DNA of 64,000 nucleotides from an uncultured Gammaproteobacteria bacterium (GTDB taxonomy: Bacteria > Patescibacteriota > Patescibacteriia > UBA1558 > UBA10009). This document shows, piece by piece, positions 6,757 through 53,933 of the stretch. The stretch is from positions 3,425 through 67,424 of the forward strand of contig CAZPMS010000006.1 in the NCBI GenBank assembly GCA_964588165.1, in the 5' to 3' direction. Both the position numbers and the translations under genes were made by a program. The notes beneath the pieces were generated by a model that did no database searches, had not been told where the DNA came from, and saw nothing but the letters and a program-made list of their open reading frames with translations. Numbering within the stretch: position 1 is the stretch's first letter; each line of letters starts with the position of its first letter.

Positions 6757-7173
6757 CTACTCACTAAATACAACTATCTCCTCATTAGTTTCTTCCAACA
6801 TATACCTTAAAGTATATACTTGGCCGTCGGACCAATAATAATAAGAAATATTTTCTGAAGCTGATGGATCTTGAGGAACTTCACCTAAAGCATTAACTAA
6901 AGCTTCATAACCATTGCTGGCTTCATCATTTTGGAAAGGAAAATTGTTATTTTGGCTATTATACTCTGTTAACTTGTTTTGAACAGCTTGAATATCTTCT
7001 TTTCTCTTAATATCTCTTTGTTTTACCAATTCTTTTTCATGATCTATGCCAGCCATAACTCCAGTACTAACCAAACCGATAATAGCTAAAGCTAACGGAA
7101 TAACTAAGATAACAGCACCTTTTTTATCTCGCCATGAGTAAATTTGAGAAGCGGATTTATTAGTTAAATTCAT
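6757..7173 (-). CDS. hypothetical membrane-anchored protein, pilin/pseudopilin-like C-terminal region
   Basis: 138 aa with an N-terminal hydrophobic helix. The RDIKRKEDIQAVQNKLTEYNSQNNNFP stretch resembles type IV pilin-like globular-domain openings. No G/FTLIE cleavage motif. Confidence 0.4.
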   Translation of the reverse strand: MNLTNKSASQIYSWRDKKGAVILVIPLALAIIGLVSTGVMAGIDHEKELVKQRDIKRKEDIQAVQNKLTEYNSQNNNFPFQNDEASNGYEALVNALGEVPQDPSASENISYYYWSDGQVYTLRYMLEETNEEIVVFSE

Positions 7174-12149: not shown

Positions 12150-14084
12150 TTATTTATCTTCCTTGTCATCCGAAGAGGATGATTCCTTTACTTCTTCAAC
12201 TTCTGCTTCCACAGGTTCGTCTTTCTTTTCTTCTGATTGGTTTTCTTGACCTTCCTGACCTTCAGTTGGCTGTGCCTGCTCTTGCTGTTGTTTATACATG
12301 CTTTCACCAATTTTCTGGACAGTCTGGTTCATATCTTCCAAAGCCTTGTTAATAACTTCAGCATCTTCGCCATCTTTAACCTTTTTTAAGGCATCCATTT
12401 TTTCGGTTACTTCGGTTTTTACATCTTCCGGAACCTTATCAGCTGATTCCTTAAGTAGTTTTTCTGTTTGGAAGATTACTGAATCGGCATTGTTTTTAGC
12501 ATCAATTAAATCCTTTTTCTTTTTATCATCATCAGCATGAAGTTCAGCATCCTTTTTCATCTTTTCTACTTCATCTTTAGAAAGTCCGGATGAAGCGGTA
12601 ATGGTAATTGACTGTTCTTTACCTGTGGCTTTATCTTGCGCCTTAACGCTTAAAATGCCGTTGGCATCTATATCAAAGGTAACTTCCACTTGAGGAACGC
12701 CCCTTGGTGCCGGCGGAATTCCGGAAAGGATAAATCTGCCTAAAGTTTTATTATCTTGGGCCATTTCTCTTTCGCCCTGTAAAACATTAATTTCTACTGA
12801 TGACTGGTTATCGGCCGCAGTAGAAAAAATTTGTGTTTTAGAAGTTGGGATGGTGGTATTCTTTTCTATTAACGGAGTCCTTACGCCACCTAAGGTTTCT
12901 AAGCCTAGAGTTAAAGGAGTTACATCCAATAACAGCACATCTTTAACATCGCCTTGCAAAACACCAGCCTGGACTGCAGCTCCAAGTGCTACTACCTCGT
13001 CTGGATTAACTGAAATATTTGGCTTTTTGCCAAAATATTCCTCTACCTTCTTTAATACTAAAGGCATTCTGGTCATGCCGCCAACTAAAATTATTTCGTC
13101 TATATCTTCTTTTTTAAAGCCGGAATCTTTTATTGCTAATTCAACCGCTTTAAACGATTGTTCAACTAACTCTGTAGTTAACTCATCAAGTTTAGCTCTG
13201 GTTAATTTCATTACCAAATGTTTTGGCCCTGCCTGATCGGTTGTTATAAACGGCTGATTAATTTCAGTTTCAGTGGAAGTAGAAAGTTCTACCTTGGCTT
13301 TTTCTGCGGCTTCTTTAACTCTTTGCATGGCCATGGCGTCACCGGTTAAATCTATACCCTGGTCTTTTTTGAATTCAGCAATAATCCAGTTAATAACCTT
13401 CTGGTCAAAGTCATCACCACCTAAATGAGTATCGCCATTGGTGGATTTAACTTCTACAGTATCTTCAGAAACATCTAAAATAGAAATATCAAAAGTTCCG
13501 CCGCCAAGGTCATAAACTGCCAGCTGCTGATTTTTCTTTTTATCAAAACCATAAGCCAAAGCAGCGGCTGTTGGTTCATTAACAATACGCTTTACTTTAA
13601 AACCGGCAATTTCTCCTGCATCCTTTGTGGCTTGACGCTGTGAATCGCTAAAATAAGCCGGTACGGTAATAATGGCTTCTTCAATTTTTTCACCCAGTTT
13701 CTCTTCAGCATCAGCTTTTAGCTTCTGCAAAATCATGGCCGAAATTTCTTGGGGCGTATATTCCTTATCTCCCATTTTAACTTTAACGCCAGCACCTGAT
13801 TTGACGATTTTATAAGGCATGGTTTTAATGTCGTCTTGGACTTCTTTATCTTCAAACTTTCGTCCAATTAAACGTTTTATGGAAAACAAAGTACTTTCCG
13901 GATTGGTGACGGCTTGCCTTTTAGCCAGTTGGCCGGCTAACCTTTCGTTGGTTTTGGAAACAGCCACCATAGATGGGGTGGTTCTGTTGCCTTCTTTGTT
14001 TTCTAATATTTTTGGCTGTCCGCCTTCCATAACAGCCATGGCTGAATTTGTTGTTCCTAGATCAATACCTAATATTTTTGGCAT
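12150..14084 (-). CDS. dnaK: molecular chaperone DnaK (Hsp70)
   Basis: 644 aa. [17 protein letters not shown] and the full Hsp70 architecture, with an acidic C-terminal tail. Confidence 0.97.
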
Positions 14085-14181
14085 ATTTTTATTATTAATT
14101 ATTAATAATTGATGATTAATGACTTATGATCATACTTATAATTAATTGATCATAAATCATAGTCCATAAATTAATTTCAAT

Positions 14182-25192: not shown

Positions 25193-25222
25193 CCAGCCAA
25201 AGGCTGGTGAGCCTACGGCTCA
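25193..25222 (-). repeat. GC-rich twin-hairpin element, copy outside a tRNA
   Basis: Plus strand CCAGCCAAAGGCTGG + TGAGCCTACGGCTCA. The first hairpin is identical to that at 34325-34339. ATCTAG occurs on both sides. Confidence 0.7.
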
Positions 25223-25228
25223 TACTCG

Positions 25229-32034: not shown

Positions 32035-32132
32035 TGGCAGGGATTTGCCCCGCTTTTCGTGAAAGGCGGGATAAAAACCCAGACCAACGGTTTTGGACCC
32101 AGCCCTTCGCGAAGGGCTGGGTGGAGACCCTC
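32035..32132 (-). pseudogene. ghost of tRNA-Trp 3' half carrying two GC hairpin insertions
   Basis: Minus strand GAGGGTCTCCA[CCCAGCCCTTCGCGAAGGGCTGGG]TCCAAAACCGTTGGTCTGGGTT[..CCCGCCTTTCACGAAAAGCGGGG]CAAATCCCTGCCA aligns to the tRNA-Trp anticodon stem through CCA. The 3' acceptor strand is mostly deleted. Confidence 0.75.
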
Positions 32133-32258: not shown

Positions 32259-32483
32259 TTAAAAGACCATGATAAGCGATCCATATTGTTTTAGTTTTCT
32301 TTCCCTCACTTTGGCATCTATTTCTTTCTGATACGCTTCATAATAAAACAATTTGGGATTTTTCATCCGTTTAGTAGTATACACTTTTCCACTTTTATGT
32401 TCAGACAATCGTCTATTTAGGTTATTAGTATACCCTATGTATATTTTCCCATGATCATCAAGTTGTAAATAAACATAATACAT
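32259..32483 (-). CDS. small GIY-YIG nuclease-family protein (COG2827-like)
   Basis: 74 aa. YVYLQ..GKIYIGYTNNLNRRLSEH..YYE. Ends 36 nt upstream of tRNA-Trp on the same strand. Confidence 0.8.
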   Translation of the reverse strand: MYYVYLQLDDHGKIYIGYTNNLNRRLSEHKSGKVYTTKRMKNPKLFYYEAYQKEIDAKVRERKLKQYGSLIMVF

Positions 32484-33308: not shown

Positions 33309-33415
33309 CCTACAGTTTATGCCGCCTTTAGGAGGTGGCAAAACTGTTGCTCCCTGCCCCGTTTACTCCAAACAAATGTGAGGAGTTATGCGGGGTACCA
33401 TTGAGCTACAACGGC
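33309..33415 (-). pseudogene. ghost tRNA-Thr(UGU), 5' two-thirds, different acceptor (GCCGTTG), two hairpin insertions
   Basis: GCCGTTGTAGCTCAATGGT[43-44 nt hairpin 33353-33396]GAGCAACAGTTTT[GCCACCTCCTAAAGGCGGC 33321-33339]ATAAACTGTAGG. T-arm and 3' acceptor are missing. Confidence 0.8.
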
Positions 33416-33553: not shown

Positions 33554-33638
33554 TGGTGGGCCGGGCAGGATTCGAACCTGCGAAGGCAGAGCCAACAGAT
33601 TTACAGTCTGTCCCGTTTGACCGCTTCGGTACCGACCC
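33554..33638 (-). tRNA. tRNA-Tyr (anticodon GUA), class II with long variable arm
   Basis: 85 nt GGGTCGG..ACAGA-CTGTAAA-TCTGT-TGGCTCTGCCTTC-GCAGG-TTCGAAT-CCTGC-CCGGCCC-A-CCA. Confidence 0.9.
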
Positions 33639-33882
33639 ACAAATTTTTAACTAGCTCCTTAAAGGCTCTTCCTCCTTTATAAGATTTTATCAGAAGCTCT
33701 CTTTTATATGCATCTTGTTTAGAAAAATATCTTTCCGAATAAACCAACTTCCAAGGGACACCTGATTTTGTTGATTTTACAAAACCTTTATTATGTCTAG
33801 CTAAACGATTAAATAAATTCTTACAATGACCTGTATAGTATCTATCTAAAGATTTACTATGCAATATATAAACTATAAACAT
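33601..33882 (-). CDS. small GIY-YIG nuclease-family protein whose 3' end is encoded by tRNA-Tyr
   Basis: IVYILHS..RYYTGHCKNLFNRLARH. ATG at 33882 (the track uses GTG at 33885). The last 38 nt are tRNA-Tyr positions 1-38, and the stop TAA is the GUAAA of the anticodon loop. Confidence 0.8.
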   Translation of the reverse strand: MFIVYILHSKSLDRYYTGHCKNLFNRLARHNKGFVKSTKSGVPWKLVYSERYFSKQDAYKRELLIKSYKGGRAFKELVKNLWVGTEAVKRDRL

Positions 33883-33896
33883 CACTTTTCATTTAA

Positions 33897-33995
33897 GATT
33901 TATGCCCGCCTATGGCGGCACCCCGCCGTAGGCGGTGGCAGTCTGTCCCGTTTATCCCGCCAAAGGCGGCGATTTGACCGCTTCGGTACCGACCC
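33897..33995 (-). pseudogene. ghost tRNA-Tyr 5' half (positions 1-41) with hairpin insertions in the D-loop and anticodon loop
   Basis: GGGTCGGTACCGAAGCGGTCAAA[TCGCCGCCTTTGGCGGGAT, TTT duplicated]AAACGGGACAGACTG[36-nt double hairpin 33903-33938]TAAATCT, then diverges into the GIY-YIG gene. Confidence 0.8.
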
Positions 33996-34086
33996 GATGG
34001 AGCCGTTGTGCGGACTCGAACCACAAACCCCTTCCTTACCCCCGCAAGATTTCGTTTCACTCAATCTGCGGGGCAAGCATGGAAGT

Positions 34087-34202
<116 letters not shown>

Positions 34203-34318
34203 AAGTGCTCCCTGCCCCGCTTACTCCGAACAAAAGTAGGAGTTATGCGGGGTACCAACTGAGCTACAACGGCAATAATGTTTTTTTAAAAAAACATATT
34301 CTTATGGCATAACTTCTT

Positions 34319-34371
34319 TCTACCCCAGCCAAAGGCTGGTCCGCCTCTGACGGAAACTGAGCTATGTCGGC
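34319..34371 (-). pseudogene. third tRNA-Thr-like 5' fragment (acceptor GCCGACA) with a twin hairpin in the D-loop
   Basis: GCCGACATAGCTCAGTT[TCCGTCAGAGGCGGA][CCAGCCTTTGGCTGG]GGTAGA, then decays. The perfect palindrome ATGTTTTTTTAAAAAAACAT (34279-34298) lies downstream. Confidence 0.65.
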
Positions 34372-36139: not shown

Positions 36140-36170
36140 AATATGATGATTGAAAACTGTTGATTGATGA

Positions 36171-36186
36171 TTGATGAATAATGATT
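36171..36186 (-). repeat. 16-nt upstream motif AATCATTATTCATCAA (copy 1, before fba)
   Basis: Exact 16-mer (plus strand ttgatgaataatgatt), also at 42099-42114 and 47831-47846. Each lies 10-32 nt upstream of a minus-strand start codon. Confidence 0.6.
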
Positions 36187-36223
36187 AAAAACTAATCAAT
36201 CATTAATTTTTAATTATTAGTTA

Positions 36224-41048: not shown

Positions 41049-41064
41049 ATATTTTAATTTAATT

Positions 41065-41123
41065 ATCTGCGGAATATCTGCGTGTCATCTGCGCCTGCCC
41101 GCCTATTGCGGGGTCAATCTGCG
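41065..41123 (+). repeat. phased heptamer array D (ATCTGCG x4) interrupted by a GC hairpin
   Basis: ATCTGCG at 41065, 41076, 41087 and 41117 (spacing 11, 11, 30). The CCCGC-CTATT-GCGGG hairpin lies between them. The array is 17-75 nt upstream of the minus-strand start at 41048. Confidence 0.75.
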
Positions 41124-41429
41124 TTATCTTTTTCCCTTTTTAAATTGAAAACTTTTTTGTTCGCCTAATAACTTTTTAGCAATTAAACGACCTTTAGGTG
41201 TTAGGCTTACTTCTTTAATAAACCACTTATGCTGAGTTCTTTGGCCATAACCGACCATTAAACCCTTATCAATTAATCTATCTATGCTTTTTGAAATTAT
41301 TTTAACCTGTTCTAATTTTGATGGAGTTTTTTTGCCGTTGTAATATTTATGGTAACGGCTGCGTAAAATCTTATTCCTTTGCCCAAAACTTTCTTTAAGT
41401 ATAAATTTTTGTAGGGCTGAAAGCTTCAT
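41124..41429 (-). CDS. hypothetical small basic protein (possible wHTH)
   Basis: 101 aa, Lys/Arg-rich. ATGA overlap with the upstream HD gene. Confidence 0.45.
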   Translation of the reverse strand: MKLSALQKFILKESFGQRNKILRSRYHKYYNGKKTPSKLEQVKIISKSIDRLIDKGLMVGYGQRTQHKWFIKEVSLTPKGRLIAKKLLGEQKSFQFKKGKR

Positions 41430-42088
41430 GCTAATTTAAATTTATTTATTTCTAAGCTGAATTTATAACCTAAATATTCTGCCGAATGCCGACAATAAAC
41501 CATCCTGGCGGTAAATATTTCAAAATAATTCATTGGCTGGGTAAACTTGGTATCAATTGTTAAATCAAGAGTGATGGTTTTTTTGCCATTATTTATTTTA
41601 AGTTGGTTGTCCTTAACAGCATAATTAACTCGGTCATGGATATCCGCTTTTATTTTATCCATCTTTTTAGTTAAAACCCGGCTACGATGAACATCGGACT
41701 TATCGGCAATTATGGCAGCTGCAGAAACTTTACTCATTATATTTATATCTTCTTTATCATGGGCCACAATGGCTTCCATAATGTCAGAAACCTGTTTAAC
41801 ATCTTTGTTATTGCCAAAAACCTGATGGAATAAAAGCCCAGCCCAATAATGATGGTAAGTCCTGCCTAAAAAATTACCCATATCATGGCAATAGCCGGCT
41901 ATCTTGGAATTTTCCGTATCAACTTTGCTAAACTTTAAATTCCTGGCAATTTTTCCTGCCCTATCGGCCACAATGCCCACGTGCCTAAAACCATGGTCAG
42001 TATAACCAATATCTTTTAAATATCCAGCTGACTGTTTTATAAACTGCTGGATTTGCGGATTAGCTTTTACTTGTTCAAAGGTTATCAT
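41426..42088 (-). CDS. HD-domain phosphohydrolase
   Basis: 220 aa. H..HD pattern (FRHVGIV...GYCHDMGN). Confidence 0.75.
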   Translation of the reverse strand: MITFEQVKANPQIQQFIKQSAGYLKDIGYTDHGFRHVGIVADRAGKIARNLKFSKVDTENSKIAGYCHDMGNFLGRTYHHYWAGLLFHQVFGNNKDVKQVSDIMEAIVAHDKEDINIMSKVSAAAIIADKSDVHRSRVLTKKMDKIKADIHDRVNYAVKDNQLKINNGKKTITLDLTIDTKFTQPMNYFEIFTARMVYCRHSAEYLGYKFSLEINKFKLA

Positions 42089-42098
42089 GATTTAATAA

Positions 42099-42114
42099 TT
42101 GATGAATAATGATT
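42099..42114 (-). repeat. 16-nt upstream motif AATCATTATTCATCAA (copy 2, before the HD gene)
   Basis: Exact copy, 11 nt upstream of the ATG at 42088. Confidence 0.6.
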
Positions 42115-42123
42115 CATGACTGA

Positions 42124-43506
42124 TTATTTAATCTTTATCCCTAATTCTTTAAGTTGGTCTTTATCCACTTCCGATGGTGAATCCATCAATGGATCTCTAT
42201 TATCAGAAGTTTTTGGAAAAGCCATTACTTCTCTTATGCTGGTTTCGCCCGCTAAAATTGCGATTAATCTATCTAGGCCAAAAGCAATACCTCCATGAGG
42301 CGGAACACCATATTTGAAAGCCTCTAAAAGATGTCCAAACTTATCTTTAATTTCCTTATCTTTATGGCCTAAAACTTCAAAAATTTTATAAAGAATTTTA
42401 GGATCAGAAGTTCTAATAGAGCCGCCGGCAATTTCTTGGCCGTTTAAGGCTAAATCATATTGTAGGGCCCTAACATCTTTTAAGTCACCTTTTTCTACTT
42501 TATCTAAATCTTCGGAATTAATAGCGGTAAAAGGATGATGAGCTGCACCCCAACGCTTATCGCCTTCTTTATATTCAAACATCGGAAAATCAGTTACCCA
42601 AACAAAGGCTAATTCATTATCATCTTCTTTGTTTTTTCTAACATCTGGCTTGTCAGACTTATACTTTTCTATAGCTTCTTTATGTGTCATTCTAGAAATA
42701 CTCATTTTGGCTTCTGGCTTAACTTTGGCAACAACTGACTTTATCAATTTTTCTATCAAAGAAATAATTTCTTTTTGATTTACAAAGCTCATTTCCATAT
42801 CCAGTTGAGTAAATTCCGCTTGCCTATCGCCTCTTTGGTCTTCATCTCTAAAACATCTAACTATTTGAAAATATTTTTCCATCCCGGCAATCATTAACAT
42901 CTGTTTGTACTGTTGTGGGCTTTGAGGCAAAGCATAAAAATTTCCTTTAAAATTTCTTGAAGGAACTAAAAAATCTCTTGCGCCTTCGGGTGTAGACTTA
43001 GAAAGAAATGGGGTTTCTATTTCTAAAAAATCTTCTTTATAAAAGAATTCTCTAATAGTTTTAATAACTTCGTGCCTTAATTTAATATTTTTCTGCATTC
43101 TTTCATGCTTTAAGTCTAAATATCTGTATTTAAGCCTAAGTTCTTCGTTAGCTTGCCTATCTTCATTATCAATCTCAAATGGCGGAGTTACTGCTTCTGA
43201 TAAGATTTTGACTTGCTTAGCCAATACCTCAACTGTACCGGTTGGTATATCTTTATTAACCTGCTTATCACCTCTTTTATTGACGGTGCCGTTTATTTCT
43301 AAAACATATTCAGGTTTTATGTTCTTGATAATTTCGGCTGAATCTTTATCCAGTTCTGATGGCACCAGGACAACCTGAACAATGGCAGATTTATCTCTAA
43401 GGTCTACAAACATTATCTTGCCCATTTTCCGGACGCTATGCGCCCAGCCGGCCAGCAAAACTTCTTTATTAATTTGTTTAGTTGTTTCTATATTATTTAT
43501 TTTCAT
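42124..43506 (-). CDS. aspS: aspartate--tRNA ligase (compact form without the large insertion domain)
   Basis: 460 aa. OB-fold N-terminus, class II motif 2 FRDEDQRGDRQAEFTQLDMEMSF, motif 3 GGIAFGLDRL. Confidence 0.92.
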   Translation of the reverse strand: MKINNIETTKQINKEVLLAGWAHSVRKMGKIMFVDLRDKSAIVQVVLVPSELDKDSAEIIKNIKPEYVLEINGTVNKRGDKQVNKDIPTGTVEVLAKQVKILSEAVTPPFEIDNEDRQANEELRLKYRYLDLKHERMQKNIKLRHEVIKTIREFFYKEDFLEIETPFLSKSTPEGARDFLVPSRNFKGNFYALPQSPQQYKQMLMIAGMEKYFQIVRCFRDEDQRGDRQAEFTQLDMEMSFVNQKEIISLIEKLIKSVVAKVKPEAKMSISRMTHKEAIEKYKSDKPDVRKNKEDDNELAFVWVTDFPMFEYKEGDKRWGAAHHPFTAINSEDLDKVEKGDLKDVRALQYDLALNGQEIAGGSIRTSDPKILYKIFEVLGHKDKEIKDKFGHLLEAFKYGVPPHGGIAFGLDRLIAILAGETSIREVMAFPKTSDNRDPLMDSPSEVDKDQLKELGIKIK

Positions 43507-43519
43507 ATTTTACCTCTAC

Positions 43520-43600
43520 GTCATTCCGAGCGAGGCTAAACCCTCGCCTTAACGTTTAAATTATTAAAAAATTGTTTAACGAAGAATTCAGCTTATCATT
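43520..43600. mobile_element. degenerate GTCAT-TIR MITE (copy 3)
   Basis: The left arm GTCATTCCGAGCGAGGCTAAACCCTCGCCTTAACG is clear. The right arm TAACGAAGAATTCAGCTTATCATT is only weakly related. Total length is ~81 bp, like the 83-bp copies. Confidence 0.4.
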
Positions 43601-43923: not shown

Positions 43924-44299
43924 GCCATTCCGAGCTTGTCGAGGAATCCCGTTATTCCGGAAAGACGATTTTTAAATTCTTATTAACTCGCTTTATTAAA
44001 TCCAATTTTTTAAAACGACTCCATTTTTTTAACTGTTTTTCTCTATCAATCGCTTCAATAATACTTTCATAACTTTCAAAATAAACTAATTCATCAACAT
44101 TATATTTTTTAGTAAATCCTTTTAATTTTAATTGATGTTCATCTAATCTTCTAGCTAAATCATTGGTAACTCCTATATAAATCACTGTTCTCCTATGATT
44201 CATTAAAAAATAGACGTAAAATTCTTTTTGTAACACATTTTAAACTTTCCTACCCTGATACATTTATTAACGGGATCTCTCCACCTTGGTCGAGATGAC
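43924..44299 (-). mobile_element. GTCAT-TIR element carrying a GIY-YIG gene (putative autonomous partner of the 83-bp MITEs)
   Basis: Plus-strand left arm GCCATTCCGAGCTTGTCGAGGAATCCCGTTA (43924-43954). The right arm 44268-44299 reverse-complements to GTCATCTCGACCAAGGTGGAGAGATCCCGTTA. The ORF stop TAA lies inside the left arm. Confidence 0.7.
43952..44236 (-). CDS. small GIY-YIG nuclease-family protein (COG2827-like)
   Basis: 94 aa. FYVYFLMN..VIYIGVTNDLARRLDEH..FTKKYNV..LVYFE. Confidence 0.85.
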   Translation of the reverse strand: MLQKEFYVYFLMNHRRTVIYIGVTNDLARRLDEHQLKLKGFTKKYNVDELVYFESYESIIEAIDREKQLKKWSRFKKLDLIKRVNKNLKIVFPE

Positions 44300-46410: not shown

Positions 46411-46558
46411 ATAAAACTTTTAATTTCTTCTGAAGTTAATTCCCGCCAATTTCCAGGCGGTAAATCTTCCATTTTAATGCTACCAACTCTGATTCTTTTC
46501 AAACTGACCACTTCATAGCCTATATTTTCTACCATCCGCCTTATTTGCCTATTCCAGC
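46401..46558 (-). pseudogene. orphan 3'-terminal fragment of the rluB-type pseudouridine synthase gene
   Basis: An open frame without a start: GWNRQIRRMVENIGYEVVSLKRIRVGSIKMEDLPPGNWRELTSEEIKSFIKK*. A ~103-bp block (46456-46558) is near-identical to 47193-47295 inside the live gene. Confidence 0.85.
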
Positions 46559-46562
46559 CCTA

Positions 46563-46640: not shown

Positions 46641-46682
46641 CTTCAAAAGAGTGAAAAGTGCCAAACCACAGTGAGGGAAATT

Positions 46683-47096
46683 ATGAGGTATCCGAACTCT
46701 TTTCTGAAGAATGGTCCGCTTTATGTGGTCATTCTAGCTGCTCTCGTTTTCGTAACGGGGTTTGTTCAGTACAACAGCGACAGCCATCACTTCAGCATTC
46801 AGCACGAAACTTTCGTCGCAGGCGACAACCAGGCCTCATTGATCGGCTACACAGTTGCTGATCTGGAAAATTATGGGCAACGTTACCTTGAAGCCAAGTA
46901 TCCTGGGACATCCCAACTGCCACGCTTCGTAAACGTGGCATTAGGAATGATACCTGTACTACTTCTTCCACCAAACATTTTTTGGTCGCCAGCAATCATT
47001 CTTACATTTATGCTATGCGGAATCTGCGGAATATTGCTTACCGGAATAATTTCTAACCGCAATATGAATTGCCTCAAACCAACTTTATCACAATAA
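46683..47096 (+). CDS. hypothetical membrane protein (GC-rich islet ORF 6)
   Basis: 137 aa from the ATG at 46683, with SD GAGGGA (the track starts at GTG 46671). About 3 TM helices. Higher G+C. Confidence 0.5.
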   Translation: MRYPNSFLKNGPLYVVILAALVFVTGFVQYNSDSHHFSIQHETFVAGDNQASLIGYTVADLENYGQRYLEAKYPGTSQLPRFVNVALGMIPVLLLPPNIFWSPAIILTFMLCGICGILLTGIISNRNMNCLKPTLSQ

Positions 47097-47125: not shown

Positions 47126-47821
47126 TCATCCTCTGAAAGCCTCGGCAAATGCTGAGGCTTTTTCTTTTTCTGTAAGATTACGCCACTTACCGGGCGGTAA
47201 ATCTTCCATTTTAATGCTACCAACTCTGATTCTTTTCAAACTAAGCACCTCATAGCCTATATTTTCTACCATCCGCCTTATTTGCCTATTCCAGCCTTGG
47301 TGGACTACAATTCGTAATTTATTATCCGAAACTCTTAAAATCTTATCGGCCTTGGCAATTCCCTCCCTCAACTTGATGCCCTGTCTCAATTTTTTAATTG
47401 ACTGTTCATTAATTACTTGTTCAGTTTCTACTAAATATTCTTTTTCATGTTTGAACTTGGGATGCATTATTTTATTGGCAAAGTCGCCGTCATTAGTAAG
47501 GATAATCAAACCGGATGATTCTACATCTAACCTGCCAACCGGATAAATTCTTTCTTTAATATCAATCTTTTCTATAATATTATCTCTTTTTGTCTCATCA
47601 GTTGTGCAAATAACACCAACCGGTTTATGGTAAGCAATGTAAATTGATGACTGATGATTAATGATTAATTTTTTTCCGACCTTAACTTCATCAGTCTCAT
47701 CAACCTGGCTACCAAGTTCGGCTATCTCATCATTAATAAAAACCTTGTTTTGTTTTATTAGTTCATCAGCTTGCCTGCGTGAACAGTGTCCGCTTTCGGC
47801 TAAATATTTGTTTATTCTCAT
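47126..47821 (-). CDS. rluB: 23S/16S rRNA pseudouridine synthase, RsuA/RluB family
   Basis: S4 domain MRINKYLAESGHCSRRQADELI, catalytic VGRLDVESSGLIILTNDG. The C-terminal ~10 aa derive from islet sequence. Confidence 0.88.
   Translation of the reverse strand: MRINKYLAESGHCSRRQADELIKQNKVFINDEIAELGSQVDETDEVKVGKKLIINHQSSIYIAYHKPVGVICTTDETKRDNIIEKIDIKERIYPVGRLDVESSGLIILTNDGDFANKIMHPKFKHEKEYLVETEQVINEQSIKKLRQGIKLREGIAKADKILRVSDNKLRIVVHQGWNRQIRRMVENIGYEVLSLKRIRVGSIKMEDLPPGKWRNLTEKEKASAFAEAFRG
47139..47170 (+). terminator. terminator of islet ORF 6, embedded in the rluB 3' coding end
   Basis: GCCTCGGCA-AAT-GCTGAGGC followed by TTTTTCTTTTTC. Its reverse complement encodes the last residues (ASAFAEAFRG) of the live rluB gene. 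Confidence 0.7.
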
Positions 47822-47830
47822 ATTTAATGA

Positions 47831-47846
47831 TTGATGAATAATGATT
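47831..47846 (-). repeat. 16-nt upstream motif AATCATTATTCATCAA (copy 3, before rluB)
   Basis: Exact copy, 10 nt upstream of the ATG at 47821. Confidence 0.6.
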
Positions 47847-47854
47847 AATGAATT

Positions 47855-47936
47855 ATCTGTGAGTAATCCCTACCTTCCGGCAGGCAGGCGTGGGTCATCT
47901 GGTGGGTAATCAGTAAATATCTGTGACTTATCCGTG
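47855..47936 (+). repeat. phased heptamer array E (ATCTGTG, ATCTGGT, ATCAGTA, ATCTGTG, ATCCGTG) with a GC hairpin insert
   Basis: Heptamers start at 47855, 47897, 47909, 47919 and 47930. The hairpin CCTACCTTCCGGCAGGCAGG lies at ~47868-47887. The array abuts TTGACC at 47937. Confidence 0.65.
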
Positions 47937-48777: not shown

Positions 48778-48954
48778 TGGCTGCCGGGGCTGGATTTTCA
48801 CCCCGCCGTATTGGCTGTGGAGACAGGACTCGAACCTGTAACATTCGCATTAACAGTGCGACGTTCTACCATTGAACTACTCCACAACTAATGTAGATAG
48901 ACGAAAATACTGCCCGCCAAAGGCGGGTCCGCCCTTGGCGGAAACTACCCGGCA
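48778..48954 (-). pseudogene. outer (disrupted) tRNA-Asn-like gene enclosing the intact tRNA-Asn
   Basis: The 5' piece is TGCCGGG-TA-GTT[twin hairpin 48913-48942]CAGTA (48954->48908). The 3' piece is ...CCCGGCA-G-CCA (48809->48778). The acceptor halves TGCCGGG/CCCGGCA are perfectly complementary. The anticodon arm is missing. Confidence 0.7.
48812..48886 (-). tRNA. tRNA-Asn (anticodon GUU)
   Basis: 75 nt TGTGGAG-TA-GTTC-AATGGTA-GAAC-G-TCGCA-CTGTTAA-TGCGA-ATGTT-ACAGG-TTCGAGT-CCTGT-CTCCACA-G-CCA. A U1-A72 pair also occurs in E. coli tRNA-Asn. Confidence 0.9.
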
Positions 48955-48977
48955 AACTTGTTCGCCGAAGAGGCGAA

Positions 48978-49003
48978 ATAAAAAACCCGCCGAACTTGGC
49001 GGG
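48978..49003 (-). terminator. Rho-independent terminator downstream of the GerMN lipoprotein gene
   Basis: Minus strand CCCGCCAAGTTCGGCGGG followed by TTTTTTAT. Confidence 0.7.
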
Positions 49004-49156
49004 ATTATTACTTTTTACTAAATAACAACTCACCAAGTTCTAAACCGGTTATTATTGTTTAAATTGTTGTCTTTTCTTAACATATTAATAATTTATCAGA
49101 TTTAATCTATTTGTCAACTCTTCCTAGTTACTAATTACCAGTTACTAATTACCAAC

Positions 49157-51759: not shown

Positions 51760-51788
51760 ACCGCCTCTTTACTAAGTTGCGGTTTTTA
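51760..51788 (+). terminator. terminator after the mini-ORF
   Basis: ACCGC...GCGGT stem followed by TTTTTAT. Overlaps the purN stop codon. Confidence 0.5.
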
Positions 51789-52370
51789 TTTCGCCTCTTC
51801 AGCGAACATTTTAATGCCTTCTAAAATAACTTGCTGTTCTAATTTTTGAACCTTATTTCTTAATGACTCTACGGTTTCATTTTCAACAATTTTAACTTTT
51901 TTTTGAATAATGGTTGGGCCCCCGTCCAAATCTTCATTTACAAAATGCAAAGTGCAACCGCTTTCTTTTTCTTTATTAAATAAAACTTCTTTATGAACAT
52001 CCAAATCCATACCCGGATATTTAGGCAACAGCGAAGGATGAATGTTCATTATTCTATTTTTATACGGATTGATAATAACTGATGTCATTATCCGCATATA
52101 ACCAATTAGTACTATCAAATCAATTTTATGCTCCTGGCAAACCTTTAAGCATTCTGCATCAAATTTTTCTCTGTTTTTATTTTTTTGATTAATGTAGATG
52201 GTATTAATACCGGCTTTACGGGCACGTTCCAAAGCATAACAATCTTTTTTATTGGATAAAACAAACTTTAAATCAGCAAACTCAAGATTACCAGATTCCT
52301 TAGCGTCAATTATAGCTTGTAAATCTGTTCCTTTGGTTGAAGCAAATACTGCTAAATTGATTTTATTCAT
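51786..52370 (-). CDS. purN: phosphoribosylglycinamide formyltransferase
   Basis: 194 aa. LAVFASTKGTDLQAII, MNIHPSLLPKYPG, and the ESGCTLHFVNEDLDGGP pattern. Confidence 0.92.
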   Translation of the reverse strand: MNKINLAVFASTKGTDLQAIIDAKESGNLEFADLKFVLSNKKDCYALERARKAGINTIYINQKNKNREKFDAECLKVCQEHKIDLIVLIGYMRIMTSVIINPYKNRIMNIHPSLLPKYPGMDLDVHKEVLFNKEKESGCTLHFVNEDLDGGPTIIQKKVKIVENETVESLRNKVQKLEQQVILEGIKMFAEEAK

Positions 52371-52381
52371 AATTTTATCGA

Positions 52382-52557
52382 CGAGGATAAATTCCTCGCC
52401 TGCGGAATATTATATTTATTAGCGAGGCTAAACCCTCGCCTGAACGATCTACTATCCCCAAAGTTGAGCAGAGGGTTTAGCCTCTGCATAAAATCCGTAG
52501 ACTATAAATGTAATAAATTACTTAACAAAATACCGTAACAGAGGAATTTATCCTCTG
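52382..52557. repeat. four-hairpin composite repeat filling the purD-purN spacer
   Basis: H1 CGAGGATAAATTCCTCG (52382), H2 GCGAGGCTAAACCCTCGC (52422), H3 GCAGAGGGTTTAGCCTCTGC (52468), H4 CAGAGGAATTTATCCTCTG (52539). H3 resembles rc(H2) and H4 resembles rc(H1). H2 plus its flank equals the arm at 43527-43554. Confidence 0.65.
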
Positions 52558-52562
52558 CAAAT

Positions 52563-53933
52563 TTAAGACTTTAATTCTTCCATCATCTTAATTCTTTTTT
52601 CTATCAATTCCTTAGTTCCAATATCCGGCCTATAGAAAACCGGACCGGTTATCTTTTTTATTTCTGCTTCTACCATTTTTTCTGCTTCATATAAATCTTC
52701 ATGAATACCCACTAATGCCACGGCCCTGGAACCGGCTAGATACAGGCCGTCTTCTCTTTGATCGACTGAGGCATAAAAAACTTTAACTTTAGACTGGTCT
52801 ACTTTAGAAACATCAATCTTTTTATCTTTGGTAGGATTTTCCGGATAACCTTCTGGCACTACATATTTACAGACTGTAGATTTTTTTTGAAGCTCTGGCT
52901 TTAATTGATCTAAATTACCGTTAATAATGGCTGAACATATTTCTAAAAAATCTGCTGATTTGTTGGCGGGAAAAGTTTTAGGCGGGAAAAGTGGCAACAC
53001 ATTCATGGCCTCTGGATCGCCTAACCTGGCATTATACTCAATCAGTTTGACTCCATTCTTAGTTAGCATAAAACCGCCATACAAAAATCCCTTATAGCTT
53101 TTACCAAACTTCTTTTTTAAAGCAACAGCCGTAGCTTCATTTACCCGACGGGCTTCTTTAATATCTTCTTCATCTAAAAATGGTAAAGAAAAATCTGCCA
53201 TAGAATAAGAACCCATGCCACCGGTATTAGGTCCTTTATCATCTACTAGAGCTCTTTTATTATCTTGAACCGCTGGCAGATGTAATAAATGTTCGCCATC
53301 ACAAAAACTCATCAAACTAAATTCCTGGCCAACCAATTTTTCTTCTATAACAACCTTATGACCTGATTCAAAATGTTTTTTTATAATCTCCAGGCCTTCG
53401 TTCATATTTTTAAAATGGTCGCCAGCCACAGTTACTCCTTTACCGCCAGCTAAACCGTCTTGTTTAATTACAAAATTTTCTTCCAAATGTTGAATCCAGT
53501 CTTCTACCCCTTCCATATCTTCACCCAGTCCTTCGCGAAGAGCTGGGTCAAAAACCATAAACTCGGGACTGCCATTTATTTTATAATCCTTAAATAATTC
53601 ACGAGTGAAGGCTTTACTGGTTTCTATCTGGGCTAAATCCTTGTCCGGGCCTACTGATGGAATGCCAACTTGGGATAAAACATCTACTACTCCTTGGCCT
53701 AAAGGAGCTTCTGGACCGATAAGGCAAAAATCAATAGATTTTTCGGTGGCATAACTAACTATAGAAGTATTATTTTTAAGCTCGCCAACTTTATAATCAG
53801 TTGCCAGCTCTTTAGTGCCTGGATTTGTGGATGAGGCAAATACATAAAGCTCTATTTCTTCTTTAGAAGATTTTAAAACAGAAGCCATGGCATGCTCTCT
53901 GGCACCAGAGCCAACTAACAAAACTTTTTTCAT
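52563..53933 (-). CDS. purD: phosphoribosylamine--glycine ligase
   Basis: 456 aa, ATP-grasp. VLLVGSGAREHA, GLAGGKGV, NARLGDPE. Confidence 0.93.
   Translation of the reverse strand: MKKVLLVGSGAREHAMASVLKSSKEEIELYVFASSTNPGTKELATDYKVGELKNNTSIVSYATEKSIDFCLIGPEAPLGQGVVDVLSQVGIPSVGPDKDLAQIETSKAFTRELFKDYKINGSPEFMVFDPALREGLGEDMEGVEDWIQHLEENFVIKQDGLAGGKGVTVAGDHFKNMNEGLEIIKKHFESGHKVVIEEKLVGQEFSLMSFCDGEHLLHLPAVQDNKRALVDDKGPNTGGMGSYSMADFSLPFLDEEDIKEARRVNEATAVALKKKFGKSYKGFLYGGFMLTKNGVKLIEYNARLGDPEAMNVLPLFPPKTFPANKSADFLEICSAIINGNLDQLKPELQKKSTVCKYVVPEGYPENPTKDKKIDVSKVDQSKVKVFYASVDQREDGLYLAGSRAVALVGIHEDLYEAEKMVEAEIKKITGPVFYRPDIGTKELIEKRIKMMEELKS

Follow-up and report, generated by a model that had tools for sequence, protein, structure and literature searches.

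The locus described here lies on the minus strand of a 64,000-nucleotide stretch of DNA (the window) whose host is a Komeilibacteria-like, ultra-small Patescibacterium. A consensus scan pointed to a promoter-like site (TTGACA, 16 nt, TAAATT; 49090-49117), downstream of which lie a leader ORF rich in Asn codons (MLRKDNNLNNNNRFRTW, then a stop; 49030-49083), with counterparts upstream of tRNA-Asn in relatives, and a predicted attenuator terminator recognized in the terminator scan (hairpin CCCGCCAAGTTCGGCGGG and a T run; 48980-49003). A 26-nt repeat copy containing the hairpin TTCGCCTCTTCGGCGAA (48959-48984) separates this leader region from the tRNA sequences, which extend from 48954 to 48778. 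They begin with TGCCGGG, TA and GTT (48954-48943), readable as the 5' acceptor strand, U8 A9 and G10 T11 T12 of a tRNA. Directly 3' of it stands a 30-nt twin hairpin made up of the perfect hairpins TCCGCCAAGGGCGGA and CCCGCCTTTGGCGGG (48942-48913), followed by CAGTA (48912-48908) and by a 21-nt spacer (TTTTCGTCTATCTACATTAGT; 48907-48887).

An intact tRNA-Asn(GUU) gene occupies positions 48886-48812. It has the acceptor strands TGTGGAG/CTCCACA, G73 and an encoded CCA, was called by ARAGORN, matched the Rfam tRNA model with 75 bits (E 1e-14), and is presumed to be functional. Behind it follow ATACGGCGGGGTGAAAATC (48811-48793) and the string CAGC, CCCGGCA, G, CCA (48792-48778), in which the end of a T stem, a 3' acceptor strand, a discriminator base and a CCA end can be recognized. 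Judged from its sequence, an AT-rich hairpin with a T run (CTCAATTTTATTGAG; 48777-48745) may end the tRNA-Asn transcription unit, although the terminator scan made no call there. The whole 511-nt intergenic region was 100% identical in eight contigs from eight different JGI, ENA and Logan sample or run records, so an assembly artefact is excluded as the source of the locus; no empty or intermediate strain variant was present among these eight identical contigs.

Outer fragments and inner gene

The outer strands TGCCGGG (48954-48948) and CCCGGCA pair at seven of seven positions and are completed by the discriminator G and CCA, as a first-pass annotation of this DNA had noted. The outer copy thus has a 7-bp acceptor helix, a discriminator and a 3' CCA end like those of tRNA-Asn in this lineage. 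Its D and T arms are only partial, and no second anticodon arm was found in the interval 48954-48778 outside the inner tRNA-Asn, in agreement with the earlier statement that the outer gene had lost this arm. ARAGORN made no call on the joined outer ends. A covariance check against Rfam (E up to 10), run on both tRNA regions, also gave no tRNA match for any fragment, a result that speaks neither for nor against their tRNA nature since internal truncated matches go unreported there.

One explanation would be that an ordinary tRNA happens to lie between complementary sequences, or that the locus is an assembly chimera. The flanks are indeed rich in G+C palindromes, which raise the frequency of a chance 7-mer complement followed by NCCA to 1.1% in 200,000 shuffles of the flanks. 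When U8-A9-G10 was also demanded after the 5' 7-mer, however, only 43 of the 200,000 shuffles qualified, the fragments occupy an orthologous position and match the tRNA-Asn genes of relatives (see below), and eight independent assemblies are identical. We therefore regard this explanation as already refuted.

The Asn-codon leader and terminator, with a tRNA-Asn gene after them, are conserved in L001, L002, L005, L019, L028, L037 and L048, and RNAalifold predicted a competing leader:terminator pairing with seven compensated pairs. In L001, L005 and L019, no more than about 10 nt separate the T run from the start of the tRNA-Asn gene, and the outer 5' end of the window sits where these intact genes start, directly 3' of leader and terminator. 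After removal of a hairpin insert of about 19 nt, the window spacer and acceptor, TTTTTTAAAGTT followed by TGCCGGG, align with TTTTTAAATTGTCT followed by TGCCGAG in L005. The first-pass annotation had asked for an intact homologue with the outer acceptor in relatives; L005 and L019 do carry an intact tRNA-Asn (TGCCGAG...CTCGGCA-G-CCA), but its acceptor is one compensated base pair off that of the window. In numbers, the outer acceptor equals that of L005 and L019 at 12 of 14 bases, whereas the inner acceptor does so at only 8 of 14 positions. The outer 5' side (first 14 nt without the hairpin) agrees with L005 at 13/14, and the outer 3' side (last 18 nt, ATCCAGCCCCGGCAGCCA; 48795-48778, which is the remnant with the preceding ATC) agrees with the 3' end of the L005 tRNA-Asn at 16/18. 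Rejoining GTT and CAGT across the twin hairpin restores GTTCAG(C/T)GGTA as in L001 and L037, by which CAGTA can be read as the continued D stem and D loop of the resident gene (C13 A14 G15 T16). Because of the orthologous position of the 5' end behind the Asn leader and terminator and the match of both ends to the tRNA-Asn genes of relatives, the outer pieces are the two ends of a disrupted, older resident tRNA-Asn gene. The central proposal of the first-pass annotation, a tRNA-Asn(GUU) enclosed by such ends, is thereby upheld.

The inner gene has its counterparts elsewhere. Scans of genomes and metagenomes, which used the GerMN alignment, returned 26 loci. Among the loci found, a tRNA-Asn of the TGTGGAG type with both flanks was present in only two genomes, that of the window and a second one represented by L037 and by L050, the latter from a different ENA sample record; this distribution could reflect horizontal spread or old vertical inheritance with losses. 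In both L037 and L050, the acceptor strands and the 10 nt of 5' flank (CTACATTAGT, the last 10 nt of the window spacer) are identical to those of the window, the 3' flank agrees at 15 of 16 nt, and the inner CCA and a terminal GCCA are 34 nt apart, as in the window. A near-identical 3' motif (GGGCGGGTGAAAATC) stands behind an un-nested, different tRNA-Asn in L048. The candidate incoming segment would consist of CTACATTAGT, tRNA-Asn and ATRCGGCGGGGTGAAA, the downstream flank being also given as ATRCGGCGGGGTGAAAATC. Since they are conserved in L037 and L048, the approximately 19 nt right after the inner CCA are assigned to this segment and not to the resident gene; the possibility that ATACGGCGGGGTGAAAAT, after the inner CCA, is the decayed T arm of the resident was rejected on the same grounds. 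The search of GerMN and AsnRS neighbourhoods for more copies of the segment gave only L037/L050 and L048, and no tRNA-Asn was found near the locus in L040, L049 and L051.

Similarity of whole tRNAs was tried as a donor marker and dropped, as all tRNA-Asn genes compared are 71-80% alike except for the L005/L019 pair (97%). Because the inner tRNA-Asn bodies of the window and L037 (80%) are no closer than those of the window and L005 (79%), what links L037 to the window is the acceptor stem together with some 26 nt of flanking sequence. A complementary TCCAAG/CTTGGA pair lies outside the tRNA-Asn in L037 and L050; in L037 this outer pair is only 6 nt long and the GCCA is also part of another hairpin. 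Within this small set of genomes, the nested state is seen in the window and possibly in L037, and the un-nested state in L001, L002, L005, L019, L028 and L048. The viral contigs scanned gave only unrelated matches or none (one unrelated phage tRNA-Asn, L047, for the 5' 24-mer of the inner tRNA; one unrelated high-GC coding match, L053, for the 3' flank motif; no match for the twin-hairpin junction), so they show no sign of a phage origin.

Mini-palindromes and the other tRNA genes of the window

The twin hairpin at 48913-48942, which was flagged as terminator-like in the terminator scan, follows AGTT within the D stem of the resident gene. Homologous twin hairpins were found at 34325-34354, after AGTT in a tRNA-Thr remnant, and in intergenic DNA at 25193-25223. 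A 24-nt palindrome is present in a tRNA-Trp remnant (32097-32122) and again, in frame, within purD, where it adds nine residues (DPALREGLG) and is flanked by a TGA duplication; the PurD proteins of L001 and L005 are without this insert. The 26-nt element upstream of the resident gene is a 96% inverted copy of the 3' end of purN (51783-51808). About 19 nt of it are an insertion between the terminator and the start of the resident tRNA, it overlaps the T run of the terminator at 48980-48984, and it is missing from the corresponding spacer in L001, L005 and L019. Altogether, members of the palindrome family occupy intergenic DNA, purD and remnants of four other tRNA genes. The intact tRNA-Asn and tRNA-Thr genes of relatives carry no palindrome inserts, and the D-loop hairpin of the outer tRNA-Tyr is absent in L044. 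L037 contains, in addition to an intact tRNA-Asn, a perfect tRNA-Asn broken only by a 20-nt D-loop palindrome. With several copies at unrelated sites and absence from orthologous sites in relatives, the twin hairpin is an independently dispersed mobile mini-palindrome and not part of the tRNA. The initial description of TGCCGGG-TA-GTT, twin hairpin and CAGTA as one 5' acceptor and D arm is therefore right for the tRNA parts but not for the hairpin between them.

Each of the five tRNA genes in the window (Trp, Thr(UGU), Tyr, Thr(GGU) and Asn) is accompanied by remnants of a second copy of the same isoacceptor. With three inserts taken out, the outer Thr(GGU) is called as tRNA-Thr; L042, L044 and L046 each have a single Thr(GGU) gene, to which it is orthologous by position and by sequence. 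The first-pass annotation had equated the architectures of the Asn and Thr(GGU) loci; recurrence holds, but the two events differ in that part of the resident gene was deleted at Asn and not at Thr(GGU), and for this reason the Asn event is counted as a replacement rather than a simple insertion.

GIY-YIG ORFs abut two of the five tRNA genes, tRNA-Tyr and tRNA-Trp (Pfam E 8e-12 and 8e-13). The encoded proteins have 74-94 amino acids and comprise the catalytic domain only, with a cleavage specificity that is putative; the ORF at tRNA-Tyr is intact. The arrangement of a 5' half, a twin hairpin, a GIY-YIG gene and a full tRNA-Tyr was found again in L044, and this site is empty in the clean clusters of L042 and L046, few genomes being available for the comparison. 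No ORF was found in the insert of about 115 nt at Asn, and no nuclease or recombinase gene is present at that locus. At a pseudouridine synthase gene, too, one gene end is displaced in similar style.

Alternative explanations and proposed mechanism

These observations are best read as a recurrent process in which incoming tRNA segments overwrite resident tRNA genes. For the Asn locus itself, we consider it probable that the resident tRNA-Asn was overwritten by such a segment and that a palindrome was inserted separately, the inner gene being the working copy and the outer pieces non-functional relics. Alternatively, a gene could have been duplicated or inserted locally within the resident, without import, after which the copies diverged and the outer one decayed. 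Data from the other loci are in keeping with this: both for Tyr and for Thr(GGU), the outer copy has lineage-specific substitutions in common with the inner one, the tRNA-Tyr copies being identical within each genome and different between genomes, and the Thr(GGU) copies sharing the anticodon stem CTTCC/GGAAG where L042 and L044 have ACTCC/GGAGT. Such substitutions could be explained without import, by duplication on the spot or by gene conversion that still goes on. Moreover, the variable loop and T arm of the inner Asn gene resemble the resident type in L005. At Asn, however, the inner and outer acceptors differ at 6 of 14 positions while the outer one is within a single compensated pair of L005 and L019, and the inner acceptor recurs with both flanks in L037 and L050 and the 3' flank also in L048, which makes a purely local origin unlikely.

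It would also be conceivable that the nesting is functional or intron-like, the inserts being removed or tolerated at the RNA level and the outer helix having a role of its own, be it that of a second tRNA or that of a CCA-ended processing or minihelix element. The palindromes are almost confined to the loops of the D, anticodon and T arms, taking out the inserts leaves faultless stems both in the outer Thr(GGU) and in the L037 tRNA-Asn whose D loop holds a palindrome, the outer Asn pairing is intact with G73-CCA, and spliced tRNA introns exist in Patescibacteria (PMC13011429). Nevertheless, an outer Asn gene with no anticodon arm and a partial D arm cannot be a tRNA, these palindromes are also found in ordinary intergenic sequence and, as a translated part of the reading frame, in purD, and an intact copy stands beside every interrupted copy in the window and likewise in L037. 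Intron_gpI gave no match at the gathering threshold across the window, nor at E up to 10 across the locus. A bulge-helix-bulge motif was not seen on inspection by eye and the outer Asn gene cannot be completed, which does not fit a spliced or nested tRNA of the archaeal type. A functional design is thus very unlikely. An even more doubtful explanation holds that the fragments are att-site scars of a deleted integrative element that targeted a tRNA. Integrating elements are classically a source of tRNA gene fragments, according to PMC9897764, but this locus has no recombinase gene, its insert measures only about 115 nt, and instead of direct repeats of a 3' part the two fragments represent the opposite, complementary ends (5' and 3') of a single gene, with a complete second tRNA between them.

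Under the preferred reading of an overwritten resident, the ancestral tRNA-Asn would have sat directly behind its Asn-codon leader-peptide attenuator. A segment with another tRNA-Asn allele (TGTGGAG/CTCCACA with its own short flanks) would then have recombined into the middle of this gene and replaced the part that extends from the D loop through most of the T arm, leaving outside the two acceptor strands of the resident, still complementary and the 3' one keeping G73-CCA; before or after this, the 30-nt twin hairpin would have been inserted into the resident D stem. Arrival may have occurred by homologous or gene-conversion repair with tRNA-Asn homology as arms, possibly driven by the small GIY-YIG nucleases that lie beside the equivalent tRNA-Tyr and tRNA-Trp arrangements. 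The inner gene would now be the working tRNA-Asn and the outer pieces non-functional relics; the transcript of the inner gene presumably starts at the leader promoter and passes the attenuator and then the dead remnant of the 5' end, and the tRNA is released from it by RNase P and 3' trimming.

Known systems and significance

In the tRNA gene cluster of phage T4, the GIY-YIG gene segB is said to be a free-standing homing-endonuclease cassette that brings part of its target gene with it and displaces the resident part. Mobile ORFs of fungal mitochondria replace the 3' end of a gene, the old end being left as a pseudogene. The loci of the window resemble such cassettes in having a working copy beside displaced fragments of an older one, in the GIY-YIG genes that abut the sister genes tRNA-Tyr and tRNA-Trp, with a site that, in the few genomes compared, is occupied in L044 and clean in L042 and L046, and in the displaced end at the pseudouridine synthase gene. 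They differ in that no nuclease gene is present at Asn, that a whole tRNA is nested instead of one end being replaced, that the nucleases are tiny, with only a catalytic domain and putative activity, and that the host is a Patescibacterium chromosome rather than a phage or an organelle. As with attL/attR tRNA fragments, the intact gene has next to it a partial tRNA of its own isoacceptor, which standard tRNA finders miss; unlike those fragments, the present ones have no integrase, enclose an insert of about 115 nt, are two complementary ends, and come with a complete tRNA and not with a 3' part.

The mini-palindromes, G+C-rich hairpins dispersed in an A+T-rich genome, recall Rickettsia palindromic elements, REP sequences and the GC clusters and double-hairpin elements of mitochondria. 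Further likenesses to small mobile palindromes are that not only RNA genes but also protein genes are invaded, the latter in frame (nine residues in purD), the short target duplication at the 24-nt palindrome and the resemblance of the twin hairpins to double-hairpin elements. In contrast, those of the window, at about 20-40 nt, fall far below Rickettsia palindromic elements in length and, unlike small mobile palindromes, are concentrated in tRNA loops and remnants. No linked transposase was identified among nine ORFs scanned near the loci, and the literature searched held no report of mini-palindromes of this kind in Patescibacteria.

Archaeal multi-intron, split and permuted tRNA genes share with these loci the non-canonical interruption sites (D loop, position 26/27 and anticodon loop) and the nested look, and the outer Thr(GGU) is likewise intact after removal of its three inserts. 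Here, however, the host is bacterial, no bulge-helix-bulge was seen, the outer Asn is without an anticodon arm and there is always an uninterrupted copy. In Patescibacteria, group I introns have been described at position 35/36 of tRNA-Asn and tRNA-Asp (PMC13011429), that is, in the same phylum and the same isoacceptor, and the genes they interrupt are also missed by annotation tools; the Asn locus differs from them in lacking a ribozyme (no Rfam group I match), in having a complete tRNA and palindromes inside, and in that its outer gene is not restorable. Nested or overwritten tRNA genes were undescribed in the literature searched, where, apart from general reviews, only the work on group I introns was found.

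Generally, tRNA genes are seen as stable, vertically inherited housekeeping genes and as passive landing pads for mobile elements. In the window, the tRNA gene itself appears to have been replaced, and the same holds for each of its five tRNA genes, within 64 kb of an otherwise extremely economical genome. If general, such replacement would be a mechanism by which the translation apparatus of Patescibacteria turns over. It would also explain some of the tRNA genes reported as missing or odd in Patescibacteria MAGs, given that palindrome-interrupted genes such as the L037 tRNA-Asn are missed by standard tRNA finders and that relics are ignored entirely, and it would offer a natural system of small GIY-YIG nucleases and of 20-40-nt palindromes entering RNA loops and, in frame, proteins.

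A tentative extension, which we hold to be possible rather than probable, is that these tRNA genes are selfish, self-replacing cassettes with short conserved flanks, with or without a tiny GIY-YIG gene, that home into and overwrite residents of the same isoacceptor in other genomes, and that loop-seeking mini-palindromes inactivate or mark the losers. The tRNA set of reduced genomes would then be turned over continually by horizontal replacement, and nested 'Russian doll' loci would be a fossil record of successive rounds. At tRNA-Tyr, the GIY-YIG frame has no stop codon of its own and ends at a UAA contributed by the anticodon-loop bases 35-37 of the target tRNA-Tyr.

A disrupted tRNA-Asn gene around an intact one

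The window carries five tRNA genes, all on the minus strand as called by ARAGORN and Rfam. One of them, an intact tRNA-Asn(GUU) at 48886-48812 (acceptor TGTGGAG/CTCCACA, G73, CCA encoded), lies between two pieces that the first-pass annotation had read as the ends of another, disrupted tRNA-Asn gene. Along the minus strand, the outer 5' piece TGCCGGG-TA-GTT starts at 48954 and is followed by two adjoining perfect hairpins, TCCGCCAAGGGCGGA and CCCGCCTTTGGCGGG (the twin hairpin, 48942-48913), by CAGTA and by a 21-nt spacer; directly after the inner gene come ATACGGCGGGGTGAAAATC and the outer 3' piece CAGC-CCCGGCA-G-CCA (48792-48778). The outer 7-mers TGCCGGG and CCCGGCA pair at 7 of 7 positions and end in CCA as claimed, and no second anticodon arm was found in the interval 48954-48778, which bears out the proposed loss of that arm. 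Of 200,000 shuffles of the Asn flanks, 1.1% gave a 7/7 complement with NCCA after it, and 0.02% did so when U8-A9-G10 was also required; chance is a poor explanation of this pairing. An assembly artefact is excluded, since eight contigs, which differ in sample and assembler, carry the 511-nt intergenic region without a single difference. Covariance models, proposed earlier as a check, gave the outer minus-strand fragments no score, a result that reflects how the tools handle internal fragments and is not counter-evidence to a tRNA origin.

The gene order purF-purD-purN-purH-GerMN ... pseudouridine synthase ... asnS is the same in related genomes, and the GerMN-domain protein next to the locus has homologues labelled Patescibacteria or Candidatus Komeilibacteria (G+C content of the window, 36%). 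In the relatives L001, L005 and L019, an intact tRNA-Asn starts about 10 nt past the T run of its leader; the corresponding spacer of the window is broken by a hairpin of about 19 nt, and TGCCGGG starts at the orthologous place. Intact homologues of the outer acceptor, which the first-pass annotation had suggested looking for, do exist: the tRNA-Asn of L005 and L019 reads TGCCGAG...CTCGGCA-G-CCA, one compensated base pair from the outer pair of the window. The outer ends agree with L005 at 13 of the first 14 nt and 16 of the last 18, and over the acceptor positions the outer gene matches L005 at 12/14 but the inner gene at merely 8/14. Judged by position and sequence, the outer tRNA-Asn is the old resident gene.

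In several relatives, tRNA-Asn is preceded by a conserved Asn-codon-rich short ORF with a G+C hairpin and a T run, and in most of them this Asn leader stands upstream of asnS as well. In the window, leader and terminator/antiterminator span 48980-49117 (minus strand), with a promoter-like site before the leader at 49117-49090. The leader peptide is MLRKDNNLNNNNRFRTW in the window, MEMIRNNNNNNNRLIAW in L001, MAVFRSNDNNNNNRFRTR in L002, MSRKYCQIINNNDNNRTS in L005 and METIRAIINNNDNNNRTFSPASF in L048, each followed by a stop codon; leader regions lie at L001 5945-6052, L002 6910-7024, L005 8432-8548, L019 5733-5850, L028 8834-8950, L037 3054-3220 and L048 7716-7850. RNAalifold on six species paired the 3' part of the leader with both terminator arms (26 pairs, 7 compensated) and placed the leader stop codon in the segment pairing with the terminator 5' arm, a predicted layout that would be the classic ribosome-stalling arrangement. 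Rfam returned weak sub-threshold matches to Phe and Trp leaders and nothing else. The element looks like a leader-peptide attenuator controlling a tRNA gene, of which we found no published account, and the inner tRNA-Asn is probably still under it.

Travelling flanks and mini-palindromes

The acceptor strands TGTGGAG/CTCCACA of the inner gene recur in the tRNA-Asn of L037, which belongs to another Komeilibacteria-like genome (AsnRS 77% identical to that of the window), and in that of L050, where the L037 locus is seen again in a separate ENA sample record. Window, L037 and L050 agree in the 10 nt before the gene, CTACATTAGT; the 3' flank ATGCGGCGGGGTGAAA of L037/L050 is 15/16 identical to the window, and in all three a terminal GCCA follows the inner CCA at a distance of 34 nt. 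Outside the L037/L050 gene lies a complementary pair, TCCAAG/CTTGGA, which is short and whose GCCA doubles as part of another hairpin. The un-nested tRNA-Asn of L048 is followed by AGTGGGCGGGTGAAAATC. Because the flank recurs in L037, L050 and L048, about 19 nt past the inner CCA travel with such tRNA-Asn genes, and the resident sequence on the 3' side is CAGC-CCCGGCA-G-CCA (48792-48778) only. The TGTGGAG-acceptor gene with both flanks was seen in two genomes only, and the tRNA bodies of window and L037 are about 80% alike, no nearer than to other lineages. These comparisons indicate that the inner tRNA-Asn came with its own flanks.

The twin hairpin, which interrupts the outer D stem, has a homologue after AGTT in the outermost tRNA-Thr 5' fragment (34354-34325), and a further one lies in plain intergenic DNA (25223-25193). 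A tRNA-Trp remnant has a 24-nt perfect palindrome, CCCAGCYCTTCGCGAAGGRCTGGG, in its anticodon loop (32097-32122), flanked by a TCCA duplication, and the same palindrome lies in frame in purD (52563-53933, minus strand) at about 53521-53550, flanked by a TGA duplication; there it adds DPALREGLG, a stretch that PurD of L001 and L005 lacks. A 26-nt element with the hairpin TTCGCYGAAGAGGCGAA supplies the last codons and stop of purN (51783-51808; ..MFAEEAK), where PurN tails of relatives diverge after MFA, and an inverted copy (96%) lies beside the outer tRNA-Asn at 48959-48984. At L037 3349-3443, and in the L050 neighbourhood, a complete tRNA-Asn whose stems are all perfect has a single interruption, a 20-nt palindrome, CCTGCCTGCCGGCAGACAGG, in the D loop after GGTA, and ARAGORN called the gene only with the insert removed. 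These small palindromes are demonstrably insertions. Insertion at the DNA level fits, because comparable sites share local sequence (AGTT| and TG|TAAA) and not a common tRNA position, and the twin hairpin is a separate mobile element rather than a part of the tRNA.

Remnants at the Thr, Tyr and Trp genes

Each of the five tRNA genes in the window is accompanied by remnants, and the earlier view of replacement as recurrent, not a one-off, holds for the outer Thr(GGU), Tyr, Thr(UGU) and Trp remnants between 34371 and 32035, all on the minus strand. The Thr(GGU) locus is a triple nest (33998-34371) whose outermost 5' fragment carries the twin hairpin. The outer Thr(GGU) (34273-33998) has three interruptions, namely a D-loop hairpin, the inner Thr(GGU) and an anticodon-loop hairpin; without them it is a perfect tRNA, called tRNA-Thr(ggt), and it is orthologous to the one Thr(GGU) gene that L042, L044 and L046 each have (acceptor GCCGTTG/CAACGGC in all), the tRNA clusters of L042 and L046 being clean. 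The inner gene lies between GCCAATAGCC and GGCTATTGGC, a 10-bp flanking inverted repeat, with a possible ACTT target duplication.

At the Tyr locus (33554-33995), an outer 5' half with two hairpin inserts is followed by a GIY-YIG ORF and an intact tRNA-Tyr, and L044 3134-3545 shares with the window the layout of 5' half, twin hairpin after G34, GIY-YIG ORF and full tRNA-Tyr. In both genomes the ORF is intact and reaches 37 nt into the tRNA; lacking its own stop codon, it terminates at the anticodon-loop UAA. Outer and inner copies of tRNA-Tyr have the same 5' half within a genome but a different one in each of the two genomes, which points to gene conversion or independent local duplication. 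The 5' remnant before the intact Thr(UGU) (33309-33415) combines a UGU anticodon arm with an acceptor, GCCGTTG, of the Thr(GGU) kind, and its D-loop insert (CCCCGC...GCGGGGCAGG) is that of the outer Thr(GGU); this mixed remnant suggests that the Thr genes recombined among themselves. Directly upstream of tRNA-Trp is a further GIY-YIG ORF (32260-32483), and downstream a decayed Trp 3' remnant (32035-32129), which has lost 8 nt and carries two palindromic hairpins, in the anticodon loop and the T loop.

Probable gene replacement and known systems

The nested tRNA-Asn is confirmed as an observation, and its first interpretation is supported with refinements: a resident tRNA-Asn is split by a segment with another allele, GIY-YIG genes are physically linked at two of the five tRNA loci, and both occupied and empty sites are present among relatives. 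The incoming segment may have been installed by recombinational repair using tRNA homology, with one junction in the D arm and the other in the T loop or T stem. Such repair could have been set off by GIY-YIG nucleases, as with free-standing homing endonucleases, and the relics would gather palindromes after, or before, installation. The Asn locus is best read as a case of mobile-element-driven gene replacement acting on the tRNA genes themselves in a reduced genome, the horizontal mobility of the segment and the role of the nucleases being proposals.

Homing-endonuclease cassettes carrying part of their target gene come nearest in how the locus works, but the Asn locus has no nuclease gene, and there the old gene encloses an entire tRNA. 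An integrase att-site scar would likewise leave tRNA fragments beside an intact gene, yet the Asn locus has neither a recombinase gene nor direct repeats of the tRNA 3' part. A group I intron would also interrupt tRNA-Asn, and in the same phylum, but the locus has no Rfam match to such an intron; an archaeal-type spliced tRNA shares the non-canonical interruption sites, whereas the outer Asn gene is not completable. The mini-palindromes resemble REP, Rickettsia palindromic elements and mitochondrial double-hairpin elements in being small and dispersed, but they are not as long and they cluster in tRNA loops and relics. In the literature searched, the sole paper found on tRNA interruption in Patescibacteria describes group I introns at position 35/36 (PMC13011429), with no mention of hairpins, palindromes, pseudogenes or GIY-YIG; nothing equivalent to the nested tRNA-Asn was found.

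Further repeats were observed in the neighbourhood. A duplicate of the final ~136 nt of the pseudouridine synthase gene lies about 740 nt downstream (46424-46559 and 47161-47296, 89% identity), with an ORF of unassigned family in between (46671-47096, plus strand); a palindrome closes the active copy but is missing from the displaced one, and the displaced gene end follows the pattern seen at the tRNA genes. The interval between asnS and aspS holds a third GIY-YIG ORF (43952-44236, minus strand), at the site it also occupies in the L044/L051 genome (L051 9308-9610). Motifs of the type CTCGGAATG(A/G)CGTAG flank this ORF and appear again next to a hairpin, GCGAGG...CCTCGC (43530-43547), which stands alone at 52422-52439. 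An A+T-rich motif, approximately TTGATGAATAATGATTAATGA, is repeated immediately past the start codon in several genes of the minus strand (36143-36207, 42088-42135, 47813-47867 and 14084-14127), possibly as a promoter or leader element common to them. Short (A/G)CGC(A/G)GAT arrays adjoin an intergenic CCCGC..GCGGG-CAGG hairpin (41060-41130, minus strand), and L002 has a comparable array between its Asn terminator and tRNA-Asn (7020-7060).
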